36,404 bases of DNA, taken from the IMG/VR virus record IMGVR_UViG_2850756110_000006; one strand, 5' to 3'. Under the pieces are notes generated by a model, which was not told the DNA's origin, ran no database searches, and was given only the letters and a program-made list of their open reading frames with translations. Shown piece by piece: positions 5,686 through 29,974 of this stretch (the first letter of the stretch is position 1; each line of letters begins with the position of its first letter). The translations under genes and the position numbers were made by a program. This DNA is from a virus (taxonomy: Duplodnaviria; Heunggongvirae; Uroviricota; Caudoviricetes).

Positions 5686-6876
5686 TTAATTGCTGTTAAC
5701 CGAGGTGACCAGATTTGCCAGGTATTTATCGGTGATACGCTGGCGCAGGGTCAGGTTTTCAAGAGGAGGCACCGGGGTATAGTCGTAGTCGATATACAGT
5801 TTTCCGGCCTTGAGGGTTTCCGCATCGTTGGATTCTTCGCTAAACCAGCAGGTCGCATCCACGATATAGCCGTTTGTTTTCAGCTCACGGAATTTGGCAT
5901 TGATGCCGTCAACGATGTCACGAATCAGCGTTGCGGTGATGGGCTTGTCCACCGCCCACATGTGCGCCTCAGCCATCGTGTCGGCCAGTACCTGTGCGGT
6001 GCGGGTGTAGTTTTCAAAGAGGAACAGCGGGTCATCAGAGCAGGTACGGTTACCCCAGAAGCGGAAACCGTCACGGCGAATCAGTGTTGTGACGCCTGAC
6101 TCGTTAAGCAGGTCAGCATCGGTGCCGGACTCCTGCAAATCCCAGAATACAGATGCGCTGATGCCGGTAACACCGTTCACCCCGACGTTGGACAGCGTTT
6201 TATGCCAGCCCTGCTCCTGGTCGATTTTGGCACGCAGACCCAGCGCACGGGCGGTAGCATACGCGGTGGCGGTGGTACTGGTGACCGTATCCCATGCGAG
6301 GAAATCCGGCCAGATGACCATCAGCTCACGCTGGCTGAAATTCTGGCGGTAAGCTTTCACCTCGGAAATGGTTTTACAGCCCCATGCGCTGATATACCCG
6401 AAAGCGCGCAACTTCTGACAGACTGATGCCAGTGCAACAGCCACCTCTTTGGTATCCAGTCCCGGTACGCCGAGAATACGCGGTTTAACACCGGTTACCG
6501 ACTCCGCCGCCAGCAGGGCTTTCAGTCCGGTGTACTGACCGTTTTCGTCGGTGGTGCCGATGATATTGGAAACGGTCTGCGCGAGTTTCGTTTCTTCGTC
6601 GTCGCCGGTGCCGTCTTCCACGCGCACAACAACGGTGACCGGTTTTGACTGGTCAGCGATGGCCTGCAACGATGCCGCCAGCGTGCCTTTTTTACCGGCC
6701 TTTGCAATTGCGCTCTGCACATTGGTAATCAGCACCGGTTTATTGAGGGGGAAGGTTTCCGCATCCGCATCGCTGGCCGTGCAGACCATGCCGACAATGG
6801 CGGTGGATACGGTTGAAATGACGCGGGTGCCGTCGTTAATCTCCAGCACCTGCACGCCGTGATGATAGTCACTCAT
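5686..6876 (-). CDS. FI: Tail sheath protein FI (396 aa)
   Basis: Matches P2 gpFI in sequence and length. Confidence 0.95.
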   Translation of the reverse strand: MSDYHHGVQVLEINDGTRVISTVSTAIVGMVCTASDADAETFPLNKPVLITNVQSAIAKAGKKGTLAASLQAIADQSKPVTVVVRVEDGTGDDEETKLAQTVSNIIGTTDENGQYTGLKALLAAESVTGVKPRILGVPGLDTKEVAVALASVCQKLRAFGYISAWGCKTISEVKAYRQNFSQRELMVIWPDFLAWDTVTSTTATAYATARALGLRAKIDQEQGWHKTLSNVGVNGVTGISASVFWDLQESGTDADLLNESGVTTLIRRDGFRFWGNRTCSDDPLFLFENYTRTAQVLADTMAEAHMWAVDKPITATLIRDIVDGINAKFRELKTNGYIVDATCWFSEESNDAETLKAGKLYIDYDYTPVPPLENLTLRQRITDKYLANLVTSVNSN

Positions 6877-6986
6877 CCGTTTAACTCCGTGGTTAATGGG
6901 TGCAACTATTTTCTGTTGTACAGAGCATGAGACGCTATTTGATCTGTCTGGTCAGTGGATGAAACAACAGATACAGAAAAGGCGGG
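6877..6986 (-). promoter_or_regulatory. Presumed late promoter region for the FI-FII-E-T-U-D operon (P_F), now abutting the IS2 end
   Basis: Position upstream of FI as in P2; no convincing Ogr-site consensus could be verified by eye. Confidence 0.3.
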
Positions 6987-6997
6987 TGGATTTGCCC

Positions 6998-7903
6998 CTA
7001 TATTTCCAGACATCTGTTATCACTTAACCCATTACAAGCCCGCTGCCGCAGATATTCCCGTGGCGAGCGATAACCCAGCGCACTATGCGGATGCCATTCG
7101 TTATAATGCTCGAACGCCTCTGCAAGGTTCTTTGCTGCCGTTAACCCGTCTGGTTTGGGCATGATACTGATGTAGTCACGCTTTATCGTTTTCACGAAGC
7201 TCTCTGCTATTCCGTTACTCTCCGGACTCCGCACCGCCGTGTTCTTCGGTTCAAGTCCCAACATCCGGGCGAACTGGCGTGTTTCATTAGCCCGGTAGCA
7301 TGAACCATTATCCGTCAGCCACTCCACTGGAGACGACGGAAGATCGTTGCCGAAGCGGCGTTCCACCGCTCCCAGCATGACGTCCTGTACTGTTTCACTG
7401 TTGAAGCCGCCGGTAGTCACCGCCCAGTGCAGTGCCTCACGATCACAGCAGTCCAGCGCGAACGTGACACGCAGTCTCTCTCCGTTATCACAGCAGAACT
7501 CGAACCCGTCAGAGCACCATCGCTGATTGCTTTCTTTCACGGCCACTCTGCCTGTATGTGCCCGTTTCGATGGCGGTACAGCAGGTTTTCGCTCAAGCAA
7601 CAGCGCATTCTGGCGCATGATCCGGTAAACACGTTTGGCATTGATCGCAGGCATACCATCAAGTTCTGCCTGTCTGCGAAGCAGCGCCCATACCCGACGA
7701 TAACCATACGTGGGCAGCTCTCCGATAACATGGTGTATACGGAGAAGCACATCCGTATCATCAGTGTGACGACTGCGGCGGCCATCCATCCAGTCATCGG
7801 TTCGTCTGAGAATGACGTGCAACTGCGCACGCGACACCCGGAGACAACGGCTGACTAAGCTTACTCCCCATCCCCGGGCAATAAGGGCGCGTGCGCTATC
7901 CAC
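6998..7903 (-). CDS. insD: IS2 transposase OrfB (InsD, 301 aa)
   Basis: [34 protein letters not shown]... matches IS2 InsD; integrase-like core. Confidence 0.9.
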
Positions 7904-8226
7904 TTTTTTGCCCGTCCATATTCAACGGCTTCTTTGAGGAGTTCATTTTCCATCGTTTTCTTGCCGAGCAGGCGCTGGAGTTCTTTAATCTGCTTCATGG
8001 CGGCAGCAAGTTCAGAGGCAGGAACAACCTGTTCTCCGGCGGCCACAGCAGTAAGACTTCCTTCCTGGTATTGCTTACGCCAGAGAAATAACTGGCTGGC
8101 TGCTACACCATGTTGCCGGGCAACGAGGGAGACCGTCATCCCCGGTTCAAAGCTCTGCTGAACAATTGCGATCTTTTCCTGTGTGGTACGCCGTCTGCGT
8201 TTCTCCGGCCCTAAGACATCAATCAT
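7861..8226 (-). CDS. insC: IS2 OrfA (InsC, 121 aa); an A6G slippery site at + coordinates 7904-7910 would fuse it to InsD
   Basis: [41 protein letters not shown]... matches IS2 InsC; CAAAAAAG on the minus strand just upstream of the insD ATG. Confidence 0.9.
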
Positions 8227-8399
8227 CTGTACTCCAATGACTAGTCTAAAAACTAGTATTAAGACTATCACTTATTTAAGTGATACTGGTTGTCTGGAGA
8301 TTCAGGGGGCCAGTCTAACGGGCAATTCGCCCGCCTGTCCTAGTTTGTACTCACTCATTTTCCGACTGACAATTTACATAGCCAAAACGCTATCAAATC

Positions 8400-8433
8400 T
8401 GACAGTCTGCTTTGAGCGAAAAGCAGACTGTCA
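8400..8433. repeat. Perfect palindrome (14-bp stem, 6-nt loop), motif copy A of a three-member family
   Basis: TGACAGTCTGCTTT-GAGCGA-AAAGCAGACTGTCA read directly; no adjacent T-run. Confidence 0.7.
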
Positions 8434-8548
8434 CGCGTTGAAGTTAATTGTATTACTTAGATAAACACTATCATTTTCCTGACGTTAAGTTGTATCTTTG
8501 ATAGGATTAAAAAACGTATAGATAGCTTATGCTACTGAGGGAATAAAA

Positions 8549-9358
8549 ATGACGAAAATTAGTGAACGATGGAAGCACAATGGCATTACTGAAGGTTATT
8601 GCAATATTTGTGGGAAATATGGCTTGCTCACAAAAGATCATGTTCCTCCAAAGTGCGCCATAACCTTAGGCCCTGTTTTGCAGAAAACAGTTAGCGAATT
8701 TTTTGGTATTCAGGAACCAGTTAAACCATTAAATGCTAAAAATGGCTCTTATTTCAGAACCATTTGCAGCCACTGTAACAATAAGGTATTAGGTGGGCTC
8801 GATGTTGCAATTGAAAATGTAACAAAGTCCTTTAAAGAACAGTTAAGTCGATATATGAATGGTATGAATGTATATCCATTCATTAGAATACCTTTTGATA
8901 GCATATCTTTCACTAAGGCTATGATTGGGCACGTGCTATCAGCAACTTCAGTTGAAGATTGTAAAAAAGAACCCGTAGATAGCCCCTTCTATACACCTTT
9001 AAAGGATTATGTTTTGGGTAAAAATTCAAGTTTTGAGGAAACTCATGATATTTACTACTGGTTTTACCCACACAGAATGCACATATCCGCTCAAAGTGTA
9101 GCATTTATGAACGAAGGACATGTGGCATTTATTTGTGCTTTACATTTTTTTCCTATCGGTTTTATTATCACAATGAAAAATGAAGGAACATACCCTGCCC
9201 ACTCTACAAAATTAGAACTTGAAGATAAATTCCTTACATTTAATATGACCTCTATAAATTATGAGTATACGACATTTCCATTTGTAAATCTTAAGGGAAA
9301 CCAAATGTATGCGATAAGCAACGGTCATACTTGTGTGAGTTATCCAATAATTAAGTGA
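8549..9358 (+). CDS. AT-rich accessory protein (269 aa) with N-terminal HNH/His-Me-finger-like motif (CxxC...DHVPP...CSHCNNK) and an unrecognised C-terminal domain
   Basis: Intact ORF with GAGGGA SD 7 nt before the ATG; C18-x2-C21, D30-H31, C-x2-C-N-N-K spacing resembles HNH nucleases; base composition far more AT-rich than flanking phage genes. Confidence 0.75.
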   Translation: MTKISERWKHNGITEGYCNICGKYGLLTKDHVPPKCAITLGPVLQKTVSEFFGIQEPVKPLNAKNGSYFRTICSHCNNKVLGGLDVAIENVTKSFKEQLSRYMNGMNVYPFIRIPFDSISFTKAMIGHVLSATSVEDCKKEPVDSPFYTPLKDYVLGKNSSFEETHDIYYWFYPHRMHISAQSVAFMNEGHVAFICALHFFPIGFIITMKNEGTYPAHSTKLELEDKFLTFNMTSINYEYTTFPFVNLKGNQMYAISNGHTCVSYPIIK

Positions 9359-9412
9359 CGGCTAAATCATACAATCTACGCATGTTCACTTTCTACATAT
9401 ACCATCTATAAT

Positions 9413-9437
9413 GTCCGCTGTTGGCACAAAGCAGACG
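9413..9437. repeat. Imperfect palindrome, motif copy B, between the convergent 269-aa and 425-aa genes
   Basis: GTCCGCTGTT-GGCAC-AAAGCAGACG, related to copies A and C. Confidence 0.55.
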
Positions 9438-9498
9438 CCCACTCTCACGCGAATGCTTTGCCCTTGACTTGCCAACAACCGTATCGCTTGCTCCGCAA

Positions 9499-10776
9499 CT
9501 ATGGTTTTTTATTAGAATCTTCGCCACTAAATAAATTATAATAAATTGATTTTATTAGATATCTGTCAGAATCTATATGGTCAGCACGAGTAGCATGCTC
9601 TAATGTTTCAAATGCTAGGGTTTGTGCGGCTTCAGCAAAAATTCCAGGCCAACCCTTACTCAGCATCGACAGTCCTTTAAGGACCCTTATCTGAATTTCC
9701 CTCATACTGGCACCATCGCGCGCAACAGGTGAGAAAAAGTCTTCAAGTAGATCGTTATTCTGAAGTGGTGCAACATGTACAGAAGGATATTTCACTTCTA
9801 TTTCATCAGATTTATTCTGCGCGTAAGCGGAAAGTATACGTACACCTCTGCCAATGACATCAATGGCGGTTCCAGGATCGTTCACTGCGGGGGAAAGGGC
9901 TCGGCAGGCTATTTCGGCCATGACGCTAAGACAAAATCGGGGGTCCTGAGCAAATGAACGTACATCCGAGACAATAATCGTCTCAAGTAAATCGGTGCTG
10001 ATTGATGACTCCTGGCCCTGACTCAGGTACAAAACTGGCGTGGACGGATGTATGAAACTGCCCGGCTGCGCCACGAGGTATACATGACGGGGATCATTGG
10101 TCAGCAGCTTGCTGAGTTTCACCATATCAACATATTCAACATAGCCAATCTTTTTCGGATAAACTGCAACCGTTCCTTTCGGCTGTTCATTGTTCTCAAG
10201 CCATGGATATCCGCCGAGACAGGGATTTCTTGCTCTCGCAATAAATGTTTCGATGGCCGCCTGTTCTACTTTTGCCGTTGTCTCACCAACCCTCCCCAGA
10301 GAGGTCAAATGCTGTATCCAGCGAAGCAATGTGATGAGGATTAAGGCAATGACAACCAGTGTTACAATGAATAAAATGACTCTCCCCCTTTCTCCATAAG
10401 CTCCCATATTGAGGGCAATAATCCCTACCAGACTGAAGAGAAAAGAACCGATGAAGGTGGCCAGTACATTTTGTGTGGTGACGTCTTCAACAACTAAACG
10501 AGTAGCTCTGGGAGTCACATTAGTAGTGGCTGAACCGTAGGCTGTGACCATGATGCTCAGCGAAAATGTGGTCACTGCCAGCATACTCGATGCCAGTATG
10601 TTCAGAATGTTATCGACTGCTTCCGCACCAACCTTCACGGAAACCGACTCAGGTATCATTGATTTAAAAAGAATTGATAAAAGGGCCGTTATTATTGCGA
10701 CAATTGCGAATAACGTTGCCCTGAACCATAGTTTTTTAAATGTCTGCTTCAGCATCCATTTCCAGCGTGAAATCAT
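9499..10776 (-). CDS. Membrane protein of unknown function (about 425 aa): four predicted N-terminal TM helices plus a roughly 270-aa soluble C-terminal domain; possibly DUF2254-like
   Basis: Intact ORF; start chosen at the second ATG (10776), which has a GAGGGA SD, the track start at 10791 does not; hydrophobic segments ATLFAIVAIITALLSILF, ILASSMLAVTTFSLSIMV, VLATFIGSFLFSLVGIIAL, VILFIVTLVVIALILITLL; family assignment from memory only. Confidence 0.7.
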   Translation of the reverse strand: MISRWKWMLKQTFKKLWFRATLFAIVAIITALLSILFKSMIPESVSVKVGAEAVDNILNILASSMLAVTTFSLSIMVTAYGSATTNVTPRATRLVVEDVTTQNVLATFIGSFLFSLVGIIALNMGAYGERGRVILFIVTLVVIALILITLLRWIQHLTSLGRVGETTAKVEQAAIETFIARARNPCLGGYPWLENNEQPKGTVAVYPKKIGYVEYVDMVKLSKLLTNDPRHVYLVAQPGSFIHPSTPVLYLSQGQESSISTDLLETIIVSDVRSFAQDPRFCLSVMAEIACRALSPAVNDPGTAIDVIGRGVRILSAYAQNKSDEIEVKYPSVHVAPLQNNDLLEDFFSPVARDGASMREIQIRVLKGLSMLSKGWPGIFAEAAQTLAFETLEHATRADHIDSDRYLIKSIYYNLFSGEDSNKKP

Positions 10777-10839
10777 TCTGCATTCCCTCATATTGCAGCC
10801 GGGATAAATAAATGCCGCCTCTGTGGCGGCATGTTGCTG

Positions 10840-12840
10840 TTAACGAACCAGATGCAGGAAGTGCAGGTGTTTTTCGTACTGGTCCAGTATGTCATTAATC
10901 AGCTGTTCCTGATTCCAGCCCATTACATCATAATTTTGGCCGCCCTCTTTGAGATAGACTTCAGCGCGATAATATCGATGTTGTTCACTCTGCTGCTCAT
11001 CATTATCCAGCGCAGCGAGCGCGAAGGTCGGTGAGTTATACCCGCGAAGCCTCACTTCATATATATAATTCAGCTCGTTGCCCAAATCGACTTCAAGGCG
11101 AATACGATCCTCGGCGGCGTCACTGATGTGGCTTATCGTTCCCTGCTTGTTAAGTTCCTCCTGAACCAGCGTCATGGCGGGTTGGATAATGTCGTCCATA
11201 AAACGTTTCACAAGAGAGCGCTTCGGCAAATACGCGATATTGCGTAACCTTCTCTGCCAGGGAATTGGGTTACGTGCAGCCGTAGGAGCAATAGTCGCCA
11301 TGCTAAGGCTTTCACGCTTGGTCAAATCCCGACGCAGGGCTTTTAACAGTCCGTATATGGATATTAATAAGATAACTGAGAAGGGCAATGCACTCGCTAT
11401 CGTTACGGTTTGCAACGCACTCAGCCCCCTGCGATCAGCAGGGCAATAGCAACAACGCCCATGAGCAATGCCCAGAAAATTCGCTGCCAGACGGGCGTGT
11501 TTGCCACCCCACCTGATGCCAGAGTATCCACAACCATTGCCCCGAATCAGCAGACGTTACAAAGAAGACGATGACCATCGCCATTGCAATGAATGACAGC
11601 ACGGAAGAGAACGGGAAATGCTCCAGGAAATTAAACAGGGCAAGCGCAACATCCTGCTGAACGGTATTGGCGAGGTCAGTGGCGCCCTGGTTCATGATGA
11701 GATAGATGGCGCTGTTTCCAAACACCGTCATCCACATGAGCGTAAAGCCGGCGGGAACAAACAACACGCCAGTCACGAACTCACGAATTGTCCTGCCGCG
11801 GGAAACGCGTGCAATGAACATACCTACAAACGGCGACCATGAAAGCCACCATCCCCAGTATAATAATGTCCAGCCCCCAGCCAGTTGCTCGACTTGGGTT
11901 CATACGCGTAAAGGTTGAACGTTTTACTCACCAGTTCCGACAGATAACCACCCGTATTTTCCACAAATGACTTCAGCAGAAGCACAGTGGGACCCAGGCA
12001 CAAGACCAGCGCCAGGAGCAACACCGCCAGGCCCAGATTAAGCTCAGACAGGATGCGTATTCCCTTGTCCAGGCCGGACACCACCGAAATCGTCGCTAAC
12101 CCCGTGATGACCACGATCAAAATGACCTGTACCGTTTCATTGATGGGCACGCCGAAAAGATGGTTCAAACCGGCATTCACCTGCAATACACCGTAACCCA
12201 GCGATGTTGCAACGCCAAAGACAGTGCCTATCACGGCGAAGATATCAACCGCGTGGCCTATAGGCCCGTAAATGCGATCGCCGATAATGGGATAGAGCGC
12301 AGAACGCAGCGTTAAAGGCAGACCGTGACGGTAACTGAAAAAGGCCAGAATCAGCGCCACGATGGCATAAATTGCCCATGCGTGCAGACCCCAGTGGAAG
12401 AACGTCAGGCGCATGGCTTCCTTCGCTGCCGCAACGGTCTCTGGAGTGCCGACAGGTGGCGAAAGATAATGCATCACAGGTTCGGCAACGCCAAAGAACA
12501 TCAGGCCGATCCCCATCCCTGCCGAAAAAAGCATCGCGAACCAGGAGTGGTAGCTGAAATCAGGCTGCGCATGGTCTGGGCCCAGCTTTATATCACCGTA
12601 ACGTGAGAGTCCAAGGAACGTGACGCTCAGTAAAATCAGGGCCACAGCAAGTATGTAGAACCAGCTGGCATTCGTGAAGATTTGTTGCTGAAGTAGTTTA
12701 AAATTTTTGTCGGCGACATCCGGGAATACGGCGGCAAAGGCGACAAGAAGGAAAATTAGCAAAGCAGATGTAAAGAATACCGCTTTGTTAACCTGGCTTG
12801 TAGACTTCTTTGGGGTTGTATCATTTTCACTCATAATCAT
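10840..12840 (-). pseudogene. BCCT-family (BetT-like) betaine/choline transporter gene broken by at least three frameshifts
   Basis: Fragments 11824-12840, 11435-11821 and 10840-11415 carry consecutive BCCT segments, including [32 protein letters not shown] recovered only by switching frame near 11880; further shifts near 11510 and 11425. Confidence 0.8.
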
Positions 12841-13082
12841 TTATTCCATTAATTAAATCCGCACTGGATAGAAGGTACTACCTCTCACAGAGTAGCAAAG
12901 TTCAACTGGCTATGCGGGATTAATCGGAATGCATGGTGGAATGAGTGCCGATACAAATCATCCTATATTCTAAGGAGTTTTAAGTTACTCAGCCTGCCAA
13001 TTACTGGGGCATTTAATTTGTATGATCTGTATCAAAGCTGGGATATAAGTTAAGTGAAGTATATTAGGCACGAATTACCAGC

Positions 13083-13112
13083 GTCTGCTCTTGGCACAGA
13101 GCGGACTGTCAG
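13083..13112. repeat. Imperfect palindrome, motif copy C, between the transporter pseudogene and G
   Basis: GTCTGCTCT-TGGCAC-AGAGCGGACTGTCAG, related to copies A and B. Confidence 0.55.
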
Positions 13113-13155
13113 ATTAGACTTTACTCTGTGCTATAGGTATGTCAGCTCATACAAC

Positions 13156-13683
13156 TTATTGCGGCATTTCCGGCCATTCAGGATTTGCAGGATCCACACG
13201 ACTGACCAGAACGCTGTAGCGTTCCCATGCTTCCAGTCGGCTGCGCTCCTCATCTGTTGCCATATTCAGCCTGACAGCGCGCTCCAGCGGCAAAATCACG
13301 GATTCAGCTTCGGAAAGTAAAGTTGCCTTTTGTGATTCTGCCAGTTGCTGCTGTTCGTCTGCCGTATAAATCCGCTTAATCACGGCACCATCCTTAAACA
13401 TCCATTTACCTGAGTCATCAGCACGTCGGTTGGCGGTAATATCAGGAACCTCGACAACGCTAAAACCTTCAGGGTTAAGCGTTGAAGCATCTCTGGTGAT
13501 GCCGACAATTATATTATTCTCGTCGTAAACAATCTTTATCGTGTCTTCCTGAAAATTACTTACTTCCTCATACCAGTTTTTTCCGTCTTCAGACCATAAC
13601 CAGATAACATCAAAATTTTTTGTCAGTTGATATTGGGCAACAGTTTTGGGATTACCCGCAGTAATATTTTTTAAATGCTGCAT
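13156..13683 (-). CDS. G: Tail fibre assembly protein G (175 aa)
   Basis: Matches P2 gpG in length and sequence. Confidence 0.9.
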
Positions 13684-13686
13684 AAA

Positions 13687-15777
13687 TTACACCTGTGCGA
13701 CGTTATACCATGTGCCATTAATGTATTTTTGTATTGGTCTGAATACTGCCGGATCATCGCCATCAACTTCGCCGACAATGCCAAGCCCTGTAATTACATG
13801 GCCTGATTTCTCATACATCACGCCTTTTTGCATGGTCTGAACAACACGCGTACCCAGGCGAACATCTTTCACATAGCGGGAATCAAAATTTCCGTAATCT
13901 GATGGGTTAACACGTCCAGTAACACTCAGGCCATGCCCCATTGACACTCCGCCATTGGCGTTATTGATAGTCAGCGGTCTTAAACCGTTCCATGTTCCAA
14001 ATTTATCGCCAGAGGCCGTCAGCATTAAATATGTGCTGCCGCCATCATTCCTGATAAAGAATCCATAATTGCCATAAGCAATGCGCAGACCATTAGCACT
14101 GAGCGATGTAATTTCACCTCTTGAACGAAGACCATAAGCAGAGCTGAGTGATAATTCTTCCTGAGCATCAGTATTACCTGTCGCCCAGCGAATTACCCCG
14201 CCCTGTACTGTTTCATGCCAGATAGTGTCTCCTTCTCCACCACGAAACTTTCTGAGATATTTTTTGCCGCCTCTGGTGCCGGAACATAAGGCCGTAGACA
14301 TATAGGCATTCTGGCTTCCACTATCCTGATTAATAGTTCCAGACATAGAATCGCCGTAACGGTTCCAGTCACGCCGCCAGCCAGGAGCATAGTTGTCCCC
14401 GTGGTTAATATAAGTAAATTGCGCGCTTGTAGCGCCCCCACCGCTTGATGTTGTTGGTGTGGTAATACGAATAGTCATTGCAGACTTTATGCCCATTACC
14501 TCAATAACAGCGCCAGCAAGATGAATATTGCCACAGCCAGTATCCGTAATGATTTTGTTATTTGCATATGACCAGGAGCCTTTGCACATCCAGTACGGAT
14601 GATTAAATGCACCACGGGAATCCAGCCATTCAATAAACTGAGCGGTTGTCCAGTTTCCGGCTTCAGTGCTCAAAGCGCCGCTATAAGCACGACAGGCACC
14701 GATATTTTTCGTGAAGGTATCCTTTCCCGGAATATCCGCACCGTTCTGATCTTTCTGAAGACGTTTTTCAGCATTGTCATAGGCAGACTTCACCGCCTTT
14801 GGCGTTGCAGCCTGCGTTTCAGAATCACTGTTGGTGGCGCTACTGAGCTGGACAAGACCTTTTCGCGCCGTGGTGGCATCCTGTGCAGTGTATTTCCCGT
14901 TAGCAAGGTCATATGCTGTCTTAACCGCCTTTGGCGTTGCCGCAAGCGTTTCAGAATCGCTGTTGGTGGCGCTACTGAGCTGAACAAGGCCTTTTCGCGC
15001 TGTTGTGGCATCCTGTGCAGTGTATTTCCCGTTAGCAAGGTCATATGCTGCCTTTACCGCTTTCGGCGTTGCGGCGAGCGTTTCAGACGTGCTGTTAGTC
15101 GCACTACTGAGCTGAACAAGGCCTTTTCGCGCGGTGGTAGCGTCCTGTGCGGTATATTTCCCGTTAGCAAGGTCATATGCGGCCTTAACCGCTTTCGGAG
15201 TTGCAGCCAGTGTTTCAGACGTGCTGTTGGTCGCACTGCTTAACTGAGTAAAACCTTTTGCGGTCAGCGAGGCGTCAGGGTGACGTCGTGACTGTTCATG
15301 TTCTGCAATTTTGTCATCAACGTAATCCTGCGTTGCCATCACCGTTGTGGTGTCAATGGTCAGCTCCACTGAGGCCACACTGCTGACGATGATGACCATG
15401 CGGCAGGTCTGCGAACGCCCTGAGCCTTCGGCAAGGGCTGGCTTATAACTTTCGGCCATGTTCGCCACGGCAATTAGCGTTCCCGCATCATCGTACAGGC
15501 CAAGTTCACGCATCCAGAAACCGCCCACCTCCGGCGGAATAACCAGCTCTGCGATAATATAATTACTGTTTCGTTTGTCCTGGCTGATTTTGTTCAGCGC
15601 ATGTCGCCAGACTTCATGGATAAGCCCGGTCTGTCCGGCATCCGGGACAGGCAATTTACCACCGCCATCCCCGACGGCCATCGTGGTAATGTTGACCTTC
15701 CGCCCTCCCGGTGCGGTTGCCGCTGCCAGCTTTGCTGCACCGGCAGTGGTGATAACGGTTTTGAATTTTGTGCTCAT
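13687..15777 (-). CDS. H: Tail fibre protein H (696 aa) with internal tandem repeats and a variable C-terminal receptor-binding region
   Basis: Conserved P2 H N-terminus MSTKFKTVITTAGAAKLAAA...; about four 44-aa repeats (QLSSATNSxSETLAATPKAVKAAYDLANGKYTAQDATTARKGLV). Confidence 0.9.
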   Translation of the reverse strand: MSTKFKTVITTAGAAKLAAATAPGGRKVNITTMAVGDGGGKLPVPDAGQTGLIHEVWRHALNKISQDKRNSNYIIAELVIPPEVGGFWMRELGLYDDAGTLIAVANMAESYKPALAEGSGRSQTCRMVIIVSSVASVELTIDTTTVMATQDYVDDKIAEHEQSRRHPDASLTAKGFTQLSSATNSTSETLAATPKAVKAAYDLANGKYTAQDATTARKGLVQLSSATNSTSETLAATPKAVKAAYDLANGKYTAQDATTARKGLVQLSSATNSDSETLAATPKAVKTAYDLANGKYTAQDATTARKGLVQLSSATNSDSETQAATPKAVKSAYDNAEKRLQKDQNGADIPGKDTFTKNIGACRAYSGALSTEAGNWTTAQFIEWLDSRGAFNHPYWMCKGSWSYANNKIITDTGCGNIHLAGAVIEVMGIKSAMTIRITTPTTSSGGGATSAQFTYINHGDNYAPGWRRDWNRYGDSMSGTINQDSGSQNAYMSTALCSGTRGGKKYLRKFRGGEGDTIWHETVQGGVIRWATGNTDAQEELSLSSAYGLRSRGEITSLSANGLRIAYGNYGFFIRNDGGSTYLMLTASGDKFGTWNGLRPLTINNANGGVSMGHGLSVTGRVNPSDYGNFDSRYVKDVRLGTRVVQTMQKGVMYEKSGHVITGLGIVGEVDGDDPAVFRPIQKYINGTWYNVAQV
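14773..15261. repeat. Tandem 132-bp coding repeats (about 3.7 copies) inside H; coordinates approximate
   Basis: 44-aa period in the H protein; repetitive shadow ORFs on other frames (14599-15243, 14790-15044). Confidence 0.8.
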
Positions 15778-15787
15778 TATTCCTCAC

Positions 15788-16318
15788 TTATCCGGGGTAA
15801 ACCGTAATTACATCGCCGTCGTAAGCCACACCACCGGCGAACAGGTAGCCGGGAATATCCCGGGTAATGTTCAGGCCAATAAGATGACGGCTTGCAGGTT
15901 TGGCATCAGCAATAAGCCGTTCCATTTCCTGATACATTGCCTCTGTGATGCCGCTTTCCAGTACGCCAATATCAAGCCGGAAGGTGCCTGGCGGGTCACT
16001 GGTTTCCCACCACTCCGTCACGTTGATGAGATAGCCCAGCGGCTCCACCACACGCCGGATTGCACCTATAGTGCCTTTATGACAGTGGATGAAATAGGCA
16101 TCGCGAATAACGGCGCGTTTGGTCGCTTCCGGCCACTTTTCATCCCACCTGTCGACCGAAAACGCCCACGCCAGCCACGGCAGCAGATTTGCCGGACAGG
16201 TATCCGGGTTCCACAGATCACGAATACTGACCGGCGTTTTTTCAATTTCCGCACAGGCTTTTGCGGCGGCGACTTCAAGCGGTGATGAGCCGGTCGGCAG
16301 CAGGCGCGAATCACTCAT
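15788..16318 (-). CDS. I: Baseplate assembly protein I (176 aa)
   Basis: Matches P2 gpI. Confidence 0.95.
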   Translation of the reverse strand: MSDSRLLPTGSSPLEVAAAKACAEIEKTPVSIRDLWNPDTCPANLLPWLAWAFSVDRWDEKWPEATKRAVIRDAYFIHCHKGTIGAIRRVVEPLGYLINVTEWWETSDPPGTFRLDIGVLESGITEAMYQEMERLIADAKPASRHLIGLNITRDIPGYLFAGGVAYDGDVITVYPG

Positions 16319-17219
16319 CCGAGCCTCCGGTCACGACGCGGTATTCGGTACAGAAAGACGCCTGCGTACTGTTGAGCACAATGTCGGCCAGTGGTGCAGC
16401 CAGTTCGACACGCTGCACGCCTTCCACATGCAAAGCGGCATAAATGGCAGACAGACGGATGTCGCGCCCCAGCCGGTGCTGTGCCGTGATGTACGCTTCC
16501 AGTTTTTTCACGGCGGCAGCGCGGATGGGTTCGCTTTCGGGACCAGGGTAAAGGTAAAGCGTGGCGTTTATCTGGTATTCAACGATGGCGGCAGACTGCA
16601 CGGTCACGCGGTCGGCTACCGGCCTGACGTCCTCGCCATTAAGGGCGTTACGCACCACCGCCAGCAGGTCTTCGGATGCGACACCGTTATTTTCACGTGA
16701 CAGCACAGAGATGGTGACGCAGGCCGGAGAAGGACTGGTGACAGAGATATCTGCGACACGCCCGTCGGCACTTCGACCATGATACTGATAGGCCCCCACC
16801 GACCCGGCGACGCTTAAACCTTCAAACGCCTGCTGAATACGCAGACGATAATCGGTGTCAGATTCCATCTCGGCCGGTGTCGGCGGGAGGGTCGAATCAT
16901 CTGCCGGGGTGATAATCAGGCGCGCGGTGTTGTAATTGGCACCAATCACATCAAGGTCATTACCGGCAGCACAGGCCAGCATCACCGCCCGTGCGGCCTC
17001 ATTCACACGCTGACGCCAGATAAGCTCACGATAAGCATTTTCCTCCAGCAGTTTGACGAGAGGCTCAGATTCAAGCGTCAGGGTACGGGCGACCGCCTCC
17101 TGCTGGTCTTCCGGGTAAAGGGAAATCAGTGTCGCCTTGCGTTCGGCAAGAATGGTTTCAAAGTCCAGCTCCTCGACCACATCCGGTGCGGGTAGCTGGT
17201 TCAGGTCGATAATCGGCAT
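16311..17219 (-). CDS. J: Baseplate assembly protein J (302 aa)
   Basis: Matches P2 gpJ. Confidence 0.95.
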   Translation of the reverse strand: MPIIDLNQLPAPDVVEELDFETILAERKATLISLYPEDQQEAVARTLTLESEPLVKLLEENAYRELIWRQRVNEAARAVMLACAAGNDLDVIGANYNTARLIITPADDSTLPPTPAEMESDTDYRLRIQQAFEGLSVAGSVGAYQYHGRSADGRVADISVTSPSPACVTISVLSRENNGVASEDLLAVVRNALNGEDVRPVADRVTVQSAAIVEYQINATLYLYPGPESEPIRAAAVKKLEAYITAQHRLGRDIRLSAIYAALHVEGVQRVELAAPLADIVLNSTQASFCTEYRVVTGGSDE

Positions 17220-17571: not shown

Positions 17572-18197
17572 AGAGGACTCCCGGTTGTGCCGCCGCTGTC
17601 GCCGGGGTGTTTATGGGTATGCAGTACCTTCCCGTTTGATGAAAGTTCACCGCCGGTGTGTTCAATGTTGCCGCGCATCGTCCCGCCCTTCTGCACTTCC
17701 AGCGTGCCGGTAATCAGCTTGTTGGTGCAGACCACCTCCGGTGTGTCCAGGGTGACGCGGGTTGATGCTTTCACCATGACCACCGGCACCGTGGCAGTAA
17801 CAGAATCAGAAGCCGTCACGCTGGCCGTTTTAATTCCGCTTACCGTGAGTGCACTGGTTTCAGGTTCATACTCAATCACCGCCCCGTCAGGGAAACGGAT
17901 ATGCAGGGCATCCGCCGACGCCGACGGCGCGGGGTTATCGCCGGAATAAATCCCCGGCAGAACGAACGCCGTGTCGAGTTCACCGCCCACGGCCAGAATC
18001 AGCACCTGTTCCCCCACGGAAGGTGCCCACCATGTGCGCGAACGACCGGCGCGATGGGTCAGCCACTGAAGCCAGTCGGTGCACATGCCGCCGGTCTGCA
18101 CACGGCAGCGACCGGCATTAAGGTCGGTTTCGACGATAATGCCAGTGCGAATCATATTGCGTATAAAGCGAAGAATTTCATTGTATTGTGCATTCAT
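17568..18197 (-). CDS. V: Baseplate spike protein V (about 210 aa); N-terminal ~15 residues differ from P2
   Basis: From ...RNMIRTGIIVETDLNAGRCRVQTGG onward matches P2 gpV; ATG at 18197, the track ORF starts at an upstream TTG. Confidence 0.9.
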   Translation of the reverse strand: MNAQYNEILRFIRNMIRTGIIVETDLNAGRCRVQTGGMCTDWLQWLTHRAGRSRTWWAPSVGEQVLILAVGGELDTAFVLPGIYSGDNPAPSASADALHIRFPDGAVIEYEPETSALTVSGIKTASVTASDSVTATVPVVMVKASTRVTLDTPEVVCTNKLITGTLEVQKGGTMRGNIEHTGGELSSNGKVLHTHKHPGDSGGTTGSPL

Positions 18198-18283
18198 TCG
18201 ATAATAATGATTCTGTACAATCTCGAAGTAAATCACACCACGATTTCTGGTGCACAGAACAACAAGGGACAACAAAATCCATT

Positions 18284-18949
18284 ATGAGTACTTACTTTTT
18301 CTCGTCAGAAACAATGAAAGAATTGTTCAAAGATTATCTGGTCTTTTTGAACACGCTGACTCCCGGCACAAACTTTGAATCAAGCAGAAACAAAATAATT
18401 GCTCAAGCAATAAACTTCATTTCCGAAAACCCTGAAGATTGGGACAAAAAATCCCAGTACAACATTGCTATGATTGGCGACACCTTTAAAAGTTTCTTAA
18501 GAGAAAAGGGAGAAGATAACAACAGCATCAACCTTATATTCACTTGCTTTTTTAGATTTATCATTGAACCAAGCATTCTCTCTCCGGAAATAGAGTCTCA
18601 CTTTTCACCACTAAGAACCATCAAGGATTTTGCTCTGTATAACTATAATGAATTCGATGAGCGGAGCAGAGCACAGATAGACTTTTCTCTTAGAGAACTG
18701 CCATTAGCAATGGTTAAAGAAGTTTTAAGCTCCAGCAATGTTGACACATATAAAAAATACATTGATAGTTTAAACGAAGGGCGTCAATTTTTCGAAAAGT
18801 GCGACTCCTTCTTAAAGGAGCAACATGCCAAAATAGAGTCAATCAAAGAGTCATTAAAAGGGTATGAGGTCGCATTTAATTTTGTTGGATTGTTTGAAGG
18901 CTTTAATTCACTTGGCAAAAAGAAAGTGAAATCATGCTATCAAGAATAA
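18284..18949 (+). CDS. Hypothetical protein (221 aa), first gene of an AT-rich cassette inserted between V and S
   Basis: Intact ORF with AAGGGA SD-like sequence upstream of the ATG at 18284; strongly AT-rich; no recognisable motif; the track start at 18188 lies inside V and is rejected. Confidence 0.65.
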   Translation: MSTYFFSSETMKELFKDYLVFLNTLTPGTNFESSRNKIIAQAINFISENPEDWDKKSQYNIAMIGDTFKSFLREKGEDNNSINLIFTCFFRFIIEPSILSPEIESHFSPLRTIKDFALYNYNEFDERSRAQIDFSLRELPLAMVKEVLSSSNVDTYKKYIDSLNEGRQFFEKCDSFLKEQHAKIESIKESLKGYEVAFNFVGLFEGFNSLGKKKVKSCYQE

Positions 18950-19353
18950 TTCTTATCATCTTGGCTATAATCATTCCCTCCCCGCTGATATACTATGGAA
19001 TGCATAAATTACCAGCTCTCGAAACGACAAATGCTGCCACATATTTTATGTCAGCACTACCTTTTGCATCAGTTACATTGATTTTCATGTATTACTTTAG
19101 AGTTGTACTGCTAAATCATATATCGTTACGAACTCAGATTATGCAAATAGAACTCAGAAAGAGCCTTTGTCAGTTCATTCAGAGTTATAGCGACTATTCC
19201 TCAGAGATAAGGAAAAACAATCCGGAAGCGCTTTCAAAATTCGAAGACGTAGTATTTTCAAACATCATGCTATCCGATGATAAGATACCATCTACATTTG
19301 ATGGCATTGAGCAAATAGCATCGTTAATCAATTCATTAAAAAATGGAAAGTAA
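18934..19353 (+). CDS. Small membrane protein (139 aa, two predicted N-terminal TM helices), overlapping the preceding gene by 16 nt
   Basis: ATG at 18934 overlaps the upstream stop at 18947-18949; hydrophobic MLSRIILIILAIIIPSPLIYYG and YFMSALPFASVTLIFMYYFRVVLL. Confidence 0.65.
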   Translation: MLSRIILIILAIIIPSPLIYYGMHKLPALETTNAATYFMSALPFASVTLIFMYYFRVVLLNHISLRTQIMQIELRKSLCQFIQSYSDYSSEIRKNNPEALSKFEDVVFSNIMLSDDKIPSTFDGIEQIASLINSLKNGK

Positions 19354-28830: not shown

Positions 28831-29045
28831 CGCCCGCTTTATGGGTCGGTTTTAATGCAGGTGCACGAATACACCGGAGGCGCGCCGGCACTGGTGGCGC
28901 TCAGACGCAACAGGGGAGGAAAACGCATGCAATTGAATGCATTTCTAGGCACACCTAAAAATGAAAAAATGTTATGACAATTAATCATTTTAAACACACT
29001 GATTAAGGGTAGAATTCTCCTAGTAAAATCATAGAAAAACCGCTA

Positions 29046-29974
29046 TCAAACCAGGCTTTTGCCTTGCTTCATTTTTTTAGATGAGTCTAAAAATTTGAAA
29101 TTATCATTAGATGAAAATATTCTTTCTGCGGTATGCCGAATGACTGAAGTATTGAAGACCGCAGCCTGCTCCTCATTACAACTGAATACACCCTCATGAC
29201 CATCAAACTCGCCCGCCAAAAGAAGGTTTTTTGATACTGGGAACAAAACTAAAGTGTCTTTTACACCAAACCCGGGGAATAAGGGCCTCGTGCTAATTCA
29301 GGATTAGTCCACATTAAGCAAACTGGGTTATCTGAAGTTATAAATGACCCTTGCCCATCAGATATGGTCATAAGTGACCAGTTGCGTTGATGCAACAACT
29401 TGGTGATAACAGGTACACATTTCATTTCCATATCTATCATGAACTCTCTGATTACATTGATTTCGAAATTATCCCCATCCACAAAATTTTTAATTTTTTC
29501 GTAAGCGAGATCATATGGCAAAGACTCACCCATTTCTTTCTCATAAGCTAATTTGCAATCGTCCCAACGCTCAGCCGAACTAACTGAGGATTTCATGATA
29601 AACTTTGCTATTTGTTTCAATGGAGATGATAAATGTTCTCGCTGAGCAGGCGTACGTATTGCCAATAAGGAAATAAACTCCAGAATAACATCTTTGGTTT
29701 CGCCTGAAAACTCGCCCCCTCCTCAAGTTTTCTTAAATGAGTAGCGACACTGCCTTCAAACTCTGCAAGAGAACTCTCGAGATAGTTTGGGTCAACTCCA
29801 TCCAATTCTAATCGGTTGAAATCTCTAACCCCCCCCGACATTGCGAGTATTACTCTCAAAGGTTTTGCGCTCCTTTAAATCTATTACAGTTAATTTTGAT
29901 TTTTTCCCCCCATTACTTGTAAACCCTTTCAAATAACATTGGGATAAAAAATGATGATGCCTTGCAACACTCAT
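29046..29974 (-). pseudogene. AT-rich DUF4238-like gene at the tin/old position, split into four frame-shifted fragments
   Basis: N-terminus MSVARHHHFLSQCYLKGFTS resembles the DUF4238 HxxPQFYLKxF motif (from memory); frame breaks at a G8/C8 run (29829-29836), near 29617-29665 and near 29246-29261. Confidence 0.65.

Follow-up and report, generated by a model that had tools for sequence, protein, structure and literature searches.

We analysed a 36,404-nucleotide stretch of viral DNA (Caudoviricetes; IMG/VR record IMGVR_UViG_2850756110_000006), hereafter called the window. The whole window is a complete P2-like prophage, collinear with the P2-like reference prophage that is integrated between yegQ and yegR in Escherichia coli S10, and the identity ranges from 97.5 to 99.96% across the aligned blocks. 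The subject of this analysis is the interval between its tail genes G and FI (6877–13155, 6.3 kb), the Z/fun slot of P2-like phages, in which three 24-bp palindromic sites delimit two cargo cassettes. The features of the slot and its borders are listed by position (aa, amino acids; ORF, open reading frame).

5686–6876, minus strand: gene FI for the tail sheath, bordering the slot on the left (Pfam Phage_sheath_1, Phage_sheath_1C and Gp18_domIII_N; annotated in S10 as phage tail sheath protein)
6987–8317, minus strand: IS2, 1331 bp, both transposase ORFs intact (Pfam rve and HTH_Tnp_1); missing from the S10 prophage
8405–8428, no strand assigned: site A, GTCTGCTTT-GAGCGA-AAAGCAGAC, left edge of cassette 1 (motif scan)
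8549–9358, plus strand: cargo of cassette 1, an intact 269-aa ORF of an uncharacterised family (matches phrog_21495)
9413–9436, no strand assigned: site B, GTCCGCTGT-TGGCAC-AAAGCAGAC, junction of cassettes 1 and 2 (motif scan)
9499–10776, minus strand: DUF2254 membrane protein, 425 aa (430 aa from an alternative ATG at 10791), intact and identical to WP_000625667.1
10812–10832, no strand assigned: GC-rich hairpin in the gap from the BCCT stop to the DUF2254 start, a terminator-like match that could be an attenuator or a terminator
10840–12840, minus strand: BetT-subfamily BCCT transporter, present here as three ORFs (Pfam BCCT, PF02028)
13083–13106, no strand assigned: site C, GTCTGCTCT-TGGCAC-AGAGCGGAC, right edge of cassette 2, just beyond the G stop (motif scan)
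13156–13683, minus strand: gene G for tail fibre assembly, bordering the slot on the right (Pfam Caudo_TAP, E = 9e-35)

Contents and Borders of the G–FI Slot

Both borders were identified by Pfam, and the variable DNA between them places the interval in the Z/fun hotspot, as the original prediction from the sequence had proposed. Its inventory and coordinates of the slot contents were also correct, namely an IS2 copy, the 269-aa ORF, an intact gene for a protein with multiple transmembrane segments, which is the DUF2254 gene, a BetT-like gene and the palindromes. The order across the slot was IS2, the 269-aa ORF, the DUF2254 gene and the BetT-like BCCT gene. In the S10 counterpart island, IS2 was absent and the transporter was intact at 665 aa. 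The GC content was 0.55 in the backbone, 0.53 in IS2, 0.51 in the BCCT gene, 0.45 in the DUF2254 gene, 0.34 in the cassette of the 269-aa gene and 0.48 in cassette 2; the claim that all contents are more AT-rich than the backbone thus stood only for the 269-aa cassette and the DUF2254 gene. An Rfam scan of the slot found no RNA family, and a promoter scan of the slot showed no enrichment compared with shuffled sequence, so no promoter is claimed.

The Z/fun slot is a recognised variable and defence hotspot of P2-like phages in the literature. The experiments of Rousset 2022 addressed only the other P2 hotspot, A–Q, and according to a 2026 NAR study, the exchange of hotspot cargo, including with plasmids, "still need[s] to be elucidated". 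The island cargo of the window is a new combination within this already known hotspot.

Three 24-bp Palindromic Sites with Two Spacer Classes

The three sites share one layout, in which 9-bp inverted arms (GTCYGCTNT and ANAGCRGAC) flank a 6-bp spacer to give 24 bp. This pattern matched three times in the window against 0.01 matches expected by chance, which confirmed that the palindromes are related. Cassette 1 was bounded by a GAGCGA and a TGGCAC site, and cassette 2 by two TGGCAC sites. When the arms alone were scanned and any spacer was permitted, GAGCGA and TGGCAC were the sole spacers recovered in the first set of related loci. A TGGCAC-type site was present in 106 IMG/VR viral contigs, usually in the layout GAGCGA site, 1–4 kb of cargo, TGGCAC site. 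In an isolate of phage P2, the phage's own cargo lay between a GAGCGA and a TGGCAC site, and the same flanking palindromes are labelled left and right "inverted repeat" in GenBank AJ512683, a P2-like Z region. The P2 Z/fun locus and the Z-region inserts of that entry therefore share with the window both the G–FI position and the flanking palindromes; the cargo differs, being fun(Z) or ORF1 there, whereas the window holds the 269-aa gene and a transporter operon in two tandem cassettes plus IS2.

An alignment of 13 sites showed that the 24-bp 9-6-9 core was conserved and that the flanks were divergent or mosaic. Each arm segregated with the DNA on its own side, the left one with the upstream and the right one with the downstream flank. 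Inverted arms, a 6-bp overlap and mosaic junctions at the arm/spacer boundaries correspond to the layout of a tyrosine-recombinase core site. The spacer of sites B and C and the base after it read GTGCCAA on the complementary strand, which would match the crossover core (7 bp) of the sfx sites that the Rci tyrosine recombinase uses in the R64 shufflon.

In comparison with shuffled controls, site A folded strongly (z = -5.2) and site B did not (z = 0.41); sites A and C are able to form hairpins. Because site B does not fold above shuffled sequence and its arms are conserved, the sequence rather than a hairpin appears to be kept, which fits arms that bind a protein. For the same reason, we rejected the idea that the sites work as terminators or as folded hairpins of the attC type. 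Host XerCD acting at dif-like sites was also rejected, as the arms do not resemble those of dif (GGTGCGCATAA-N6-TTATGTTAAAT).

The Two Cassettes Occur Separately in Other Replicons

Each cassette was found alone or recombined in P2-like phages, lambdoid prophages, the Rac region and qnrS1 plasmids, and every time the identity broke off at arm/spacer boundaries. Phage pro147 had cassette 1 without cassette 2 at this position, closed by one hybrid B/C site, and the same arrangement was found in the G–FI slot of a group of P2-like prophages with 94.5% identity. Lambdoid prophages contained an identical cassette 1 (protein WP_000161640.1) in the interval from hokD to a DUF977 gene, flanked by GAGCGA and TGGCAC sites. 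At the first of these sites, the left flank and arm were those of the Rac site, and the sequence from the spacer and right arm onward was that of site A of the window. The Rac region contained only cassette 2, beginning at site B and preceded by another cassette (MFS transporter, gamma-glutamylcyclotransferase and LysR genes) that itself started at a GAGCGA site. In the qnrS1 plasmids, the homology to the window ran from the boundary between left arm and spacer of site A to position 13109, 3 bp past site C.

Two of these plasmids, CP020517 and CP145658, contained the same three site-bounded segments in the order a-b-c versus c-b-a, with the recombinase-carrying segment b unchanged. One excision at the GAGCGA sites and one integration at a TGGCAC site exactly explain this difference. 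In CP145658, a 2.7-kb recombinase-carrying segment was inserted precisely at site B, with the site duplicated. The array stretches of these plasmids (L004, 3251–6020, in CP020517; L002, 8336–11105, in CP145658) hold the cassettes of the window, a 200-aa recombinase gene and a 476-aa ORF.

These distributions bear on the proposal in the original prediction that the HNH-like and multi-transmembrane genes are prime candidates for an anti-phage system, in which they would act together, with or without the transporter, in defence or superinfection exclusion. The genes are adjacent in a recognised hotspot, the full trio of 269-aa, DUF2254 and BCCT genes travels together on some plasmids, and some defence systems do pair a nuclease with a membrane protein. 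However, a probable recombination site (B) lies between the genes. The 269-aa gene occurs alone in pro147, in the 94.5%-identity prophages and in the lambdoid prophages, and the DUF2254 and BCCT pair occurs alone in Rac, beside fec and in Enterobacter, Leclercia and Klebsiella-plasmid copies. The GC contents differ (0.34 versus 0.48), the genes beside the five distant 269-aa homologues are unrelated and include neither DUF2254 nor BCCT genes, and neither protein was matched in PADLOC. Among 5426 complete E. coli genomes, the 269-aa gene was present in 141 and the pair in 1966 (36%). A single three-gene system was rejected because of this independent distribution, and we give joint action of these genes hardly any credence. 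The earlier suggestion stands for the 269-aa gene as a candidate, by its location, and fails for the genes as one system.

As judged from these comparisons, the G–FI gap is probably a cassette-acceptor locus that holds two independently mobile units rather than one defence island. The cassettes would move as circles, by conservative site-specific recombination inside the 6-bp spacer, with identical spacers pairing like with like.

A Candidate Tyrosine Recombinase Associated with the Sites

The 200-aa protein encoded in the arrays of CP020517 and CP145658, beside the 476-aa ORF, contains a PF00589 catalytic domain. Variants of its gene (about 89–100% DNA identity) were present in 877 of the 5426 complete E. 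coli genomes (16%). Among viral-contig loci with homologues of at least 82% identity, 16 of 18 had a TGGCAC-type and/or a GAGCGA-type site within about 3 kb, usually one per side, whereas the control for this association, 153 kb of sequence, contained one background site. Homologues with about 60% identity were flanked by sites that have the same arms and other spacers. This association makes the 200-aa tyrosine recombinase (WP_001752951.1) a candidate for the enzyme that would act at the sites.

On the E. coli Ecol_244 chromosome (L134, 1344871–1359529), the 200-aa recombinase gene was located among GAGCGA and TGGCAC sites and adjoined genes annotated as dynamin family protein, RdcB family protein and patatin-like phospholipase. 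A second ORF of 269 aa near this recombinase was considered as a paralogue of the cassette 1 protein and rejected as unrelated (49 identical positions in 314 alignment columns).

The Motif in Other Bacteria and the Case for REP-like Repeats

The motif was also scanned in one genome per species, and the figures in this section refer to the matches listed. The TGGCAC-type motif was abundant, mostly in soil Alphaproteobacteria and Nitrosomonadaceae (L294, L208, L221 and about 115 more loci). In these soil loci, a TGGCAC site was paired with a site of TGACCC spacer 45 or 90 bp away, the motif recurred every 1–2.5 kb in several places per chromosome, and the genes between the sites encoded solute-binding proteins, transporters and regulators.

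An alternative explanation is therefore that the palindromes are terminator hairpins or resemble repetitive extragenic palindromic (REP) sequences, with the cargo swapped by homologous or illegitimate recombination ending in conserved repeats. The dispersal of the motif in many copies between ordinary transport genes of Alpha- and Betaproteobacterial genomes, mostly in 8-kb stretches that lack a recombinase gene, fits this explanation, as do the hairpins that sites A and C can form (z = -5.2 for site A) and the position of site C directly after the G stop. It does not account for the conserved arms of site B, whose z of 0.41 indicates that sequence and not structure is kept, nor for the position of the junctions at the arm/spacer boundary in comparisons of replicons without common flanking homology. 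Only two spacer classes were recovered in the first set of loci, and exchange appears to be like with like; close homologues of the recombinase are consistently flanked by sites. A 24-bp repeat is, in addition, too short for efficient RecA-dependent exchange. We consider REP-like or terminator repeats a distinctly unlikely explanation.

Several points nevertheless weigh against site-specific exchange by this recombinase. The first is the abundance of the motif in the soil genomes, where, of 120 listed 8-kb stretches, just 2 included a homologue of the recombinase; the soil motif is either an old, widespread cassette system or a REP-like repeat that enterobacterial elements have exploited. Second, the window contains no homologue of the 200-aa recombinase, so mobility here would need the enzyme in trans, and binding of the enzyme to the sites is only predicted. 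Third, the recombination is deduced from sequence comparisons throughout.

Cassette 1 Encodes a 269-aa Protein with an HNH-like Motif

The 269-aa gene is oriented opposite to the tail genes, and its own upstream region travels with it. The family comprised 93 clusters in a word search and 1744 clusters at 50% identity in a profile search, all of about 270 aa, and source annotations named its members "chaperonin" or "metal-binding protein". Conservation analysis showed that C21, D30, H31, V32, P33, P34, C73, C76, N77, D85, H128, W171, Y173, F200 and P202 were invariant and that C18 was nearly so. The motifs follow the order CxxC, DH at a predicted strand end and CxxCN at a helix start, a Cys4/Asp-His arrangement that is HNH-like. 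The protein has an HNH/His-Me-finger-like N-terminal part and a beta-rich, uncharacterised C-terminal part, and its AlphaFold2 model was confident (pLDDT 85, pTM 0.87). The family resembles the HNH/His-Me-finger families HNH_5 and Endonuclease_7 in motif order; unlike them, it has about 40 residues inserted between DH and the second CxxC and carries a C-terminal domain of about 160 residues without known relatives. Among 52 homologues, 37 matched HNH_5 weakly and 5 matched Endonuclease_7, with a best E value of 0.0023 and all matches below threshold. The HNH-like gene of the original prediction is thus intact as an ORF, and its HNH label is supported by the motif and these sub-threshold Pfam matches only.

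The distant homologues were solitary cargo of other mobile elements in five loci. The Vibrio homologue was located beside an inovirus prophage, the Pseudomonas homologue in a serine-recombinase island, the Serratia homologue at the end of a P2-like tail-gene remnant, and the Enterobacter homologue next to the terminase genes of a prophage. The Plesiomonas homologue was found in an integron-like array together with an HEPN_AbiU2 gene, a PLD-like gene and an SduA_C-domain gene.

Other cargo between the sites was compared as well. The 92 cassette instances formed 44 cargo clusters, and the 269-aa gene was the commonest cargo in the viral contigs. Of the next ten commonest cargo proteins, six matched PADLOC, namely PD-T7-1 (7e-157) and the candidates PDC-S15, PDC-S33, PDC-S39, PDC-S64 and PDC-M68A. 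Together with the literature, these matches support the earlier view of the slot as an anti-phage hotspot, and since the sister cargo is rich in them, the location argues for a defence role of the 269-aa gene. Cassette 1 is therefore a plausible candidate for single-gene phage exclusion: its product would be expressed in the lysogen and would exclude other phages or foreign DNA. From the motif, the location and the company of the gene, the protein could be a zinc-stabilised His-Me-finger nuclease that serves exclusion as a single gene, an assignment that we hold tentatively and put a little short of an even chance.

Three points count against the nuclease and defence assignment. The protein scored only 11.6 bits with HNH_5 against a cut-off of 27.5, and nothing above threshold was found for it in Pfam, NCBIfam or PADLOC-DB v2.0. 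The model had no fold match in the PDB, and phmmer and profile searches of PDB sequences were also empty. The defence phenotype itself is only predicted. Instead of a defence role, the protein might be a homing-type or packaging-associated HNH nuclease, a helper of cassette mobility or a metal-binding regulator. HNH proteins help cos cleavage in some phages, and one homologue does lie next to terminase genes (in the Enterobacter prophage); the lack of a PADLOC match and the two source names point the same way. On the other hand, the other four homologue contexts have no nearby terminase, the gene runs opposite to the tail genes in the window with its own upstream region moving along, and the sister cassettes are rich in defence-type genes. 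A function outside defence is, on balance, somewhat unlikely.

Cassette 2 Resembles an Uptake Operon Rather than a Defence System

The DUF2254 protein matched PF10011 with 310.6 bits against a gathering cut-off of 28.8 (E = 1.6e-92, profile positions 3–366 of 368). The intact S10 allele of the transporter reached 751.8 bits over its full length against the cut-off of 695 of NCBIfam NF007399 (choline transporter BetT). The fragments in the window matched BCCT profile positions 1–302, 321–415 and 456–485, in an interrupted frame. Like E. coli BetT, the cassette transporter passes the subfamily cut-off at full length, including the C-terminal extension. Unlike it, the transporter is a second, mobile copy that is located in phages, plasmids and islands, is unlinked to betIBA and is always followed by the DUF2254 gene.

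The BCCT gene preceded the DUF2254 gene in the same order and at a spacing of about 63 bp in every context examined. The pair was found in an ordinary chromosomal neighbourhood in Leclercia (73% identity), at the end of an Enterobacter prophage, beside fec in E. coli (94% DNA identity) and on 1533 plasmids, mostly of Klebsiella. The original prediction had named occurrence in many unrelated chromosomal contexts with a known housekeeping role as evidence against its proposal, and the Leclercia, fec and plasmid contexts largely provide this evidence for the multi-transmembrane gene and the transporter. PADLOC-DB v2.0 had no match for the DUF2254 protein or the BCCT fragments, a profile search of the PDB with DUF2254 found nothing, and the literature on DUF2254 described knot topology only, with nothing on its role. 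Considering the wide spread of the pair (36% of E. coli genomes and 1533 plasmids), cassette 2 is most likely an operon for the uptake of osmoprotectants or nutrients rather than a defence unit. It would represent a captured choline/osmoprotectant uptake operon of metabolic benefit to the lysogen. The DUF2254/BetT pair thus appears as an ordinary, widespread operon, which removes a false defence lead.

Frameshifts in the Transporter Gene

The sole differences between the BCCT gene of the window and the intact allele were three single-C deletions, in runs of C6, C5 and C6, at 11424, 11539 and 11873. Two further accessory genes of the prophage bear on their origin.

18188–19353, plus strand: a third accessory gene, one 347-aa ORF in S10, flanked by the tail genes S and V
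29000–29900, minus strand: DUF4238 defence gene in the A–Q hotspot, split into at least two ORFs (PADLOC DUF4238-Pers, 1e-92)

The frameshifts in the transporter were unique, being shared by no other of 407 near-identical copies. Both G/C runs of at least 6 in the reference S10 prophage were among the shortened ones, and most runs of 5 were unaffected. Compared with its intact copy, the DUF4238 gene showed only G5 to G4, C6 to C5 and C7 to C8 changes (29273, 29714 and 29829), with no substitutions. Because the frameshifts are confined to homopolymers, are unique among the 407 copies and follow the same pattern as those in the DUF4238 gene, they are probably sequencing or assembly errors, and on this comparison we judge the odds of error over true decay at roughly two to one.

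The BetT-like gene might instead be truly decaying in this lysogen through slippage in C runs. The three frameshifts are present in the sequence, no indels separate the core phage genes from those of S10, and another accessory gene is also broken, by a 4-bp deletion at 18918 that does not lie in a homopolymer and divides the gene between S and V into ORFs of 253 and 139 aa. Against such decay, the 8.4-kb block from 8319 to 16700 has one substitution (16056), with none within the gene, and yet three indels occur in 450 bp; both G/C runs of 6 were hit while most runs of 5 were spared; the same pattern, including the gain from C7 to C8, occurs without substitutions in the DUF4238 gene; and no other copy among the 407 had the allele. 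We regard decay as somewhat unlikely. The gene described earlier as decayed is thus indeed split into three ORFs, whereas its decay is doubtful. If the apparent decay is an assembly artefact, as is probable, a second false lead is removed.

IS2 and Other Features of the Prophage

The element at 6987–8317 has the length, terminal inverted repeats and two ORFs of IS2 (IS3 family), and it was 99.8% identical to an annotated IS2, which confirms the copy noted in the original prediction. Its junctions, GCGGG followed by TGGATTTGCC and CCAGTCTA followed by ACGGG, gave an imperfect 5-bp target duplication (GCGGG/ACGGG). As IS2 is absent from the S10 prophage, with which the identity is otherwise 99.95%, comparison identifies it as a later insertion that is unrelated to the cassettes. 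IS2 lies 110 bp upstream of the FI start (6877–6990), near the expected late promoter P_F, and might influence tail-gene expression. The late-promoter motif TGT-N12-ACA was not found upstream of FI.

The accessory gene between S and V (18188–19353) had no PADLOC match. The tail fibre gene H contained internal direct repeats of about 132 bp with 87% identity at 14770–15262, which encode repeated "ATNS.SETLAATPKAVK" segments.

Relation to Known Cassette Systems and Implications

The slot can be compared with integrons, since both consist of one- or two-gene units that are bounded by sites, are stackable and move between replicons, with a tyrosine recombinase, which here is a candidate. Unlike the long, folded attC sites of integrons, the slot sites are short palindromes in double-stranded form, built 9-6-9 and falling into two spacer classes, and site B is unfolded. 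The candidate recombinase, at 200 aa, is itself located between two sites, and the cassettes have their own upstream regions and occur in either orientation, again unlike integrons. Neither IntI nor attI was found, and there was no PF00589-type gene in or next to the slot.

The pdif modules of Acinetobacter plasmids are small sets of genes between short XerC/XerD sites, each composed of two arms with a 6-bp spacer; the modules are found in different plasmids and are joined at these sites. The slot differs from these modules in that a dedicated small recombinase is implicated instead of host XerCD, and in that its modules occur in phages as well as plasmids.

The title of a 2004 paper by Nilsson, Karlsson and Haggard-Ljungquist is said to propose site-specific exchange for the P2-like Z region already. 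Our literature searches, which did not cover that paper, found no published description of the 24-bp sites or of the 200-aa recombinase. The useful new leads are accordingly the site architecture and the candidate recombinase, the hotspot itself being already known.

The broadest interpretation is that the slot belongs to a cassette-exchange system, undescribed as far as we found, that is integron-like and yet distinct, with 24-bp sites, a recombinase family of about 200 aa and, as one of its cargoes, the 269-aa gene as a new single-gene nuclease defence; taken as a whole, this is possible and rather doubtful. Such a system would pair TGGCAC sites with a second spacer class, which is GAGCGA in enterobacterial elements and TGACCC in Alpha- and Betaproteobacteria. 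It would shuttle one- or two-gene cassettes that carry defence genes or transporters among P2-like phages, lambdoid prophages, plasmids and chromosomal arrays.

In E. coli, few elements carry anti-phage genes as commonly as P2-like prophages do. The 269-aa family, with 1744 clusters and neither a Pfam model nor a solved relative, is the commonest cargo between the sites in the phage contigs sampled and thus a sensible candidate for defence screening. For the exchange of Z/fun cargo, the window offers a concrete, testable answer in the form of 24-bp sites, two spacer classes and a candidate recombinase. If this answer is true, the cassette-exchange system would explain how hotspot cargo is swapped so rapidly, a mechanism that the 2026 NAR study left open.

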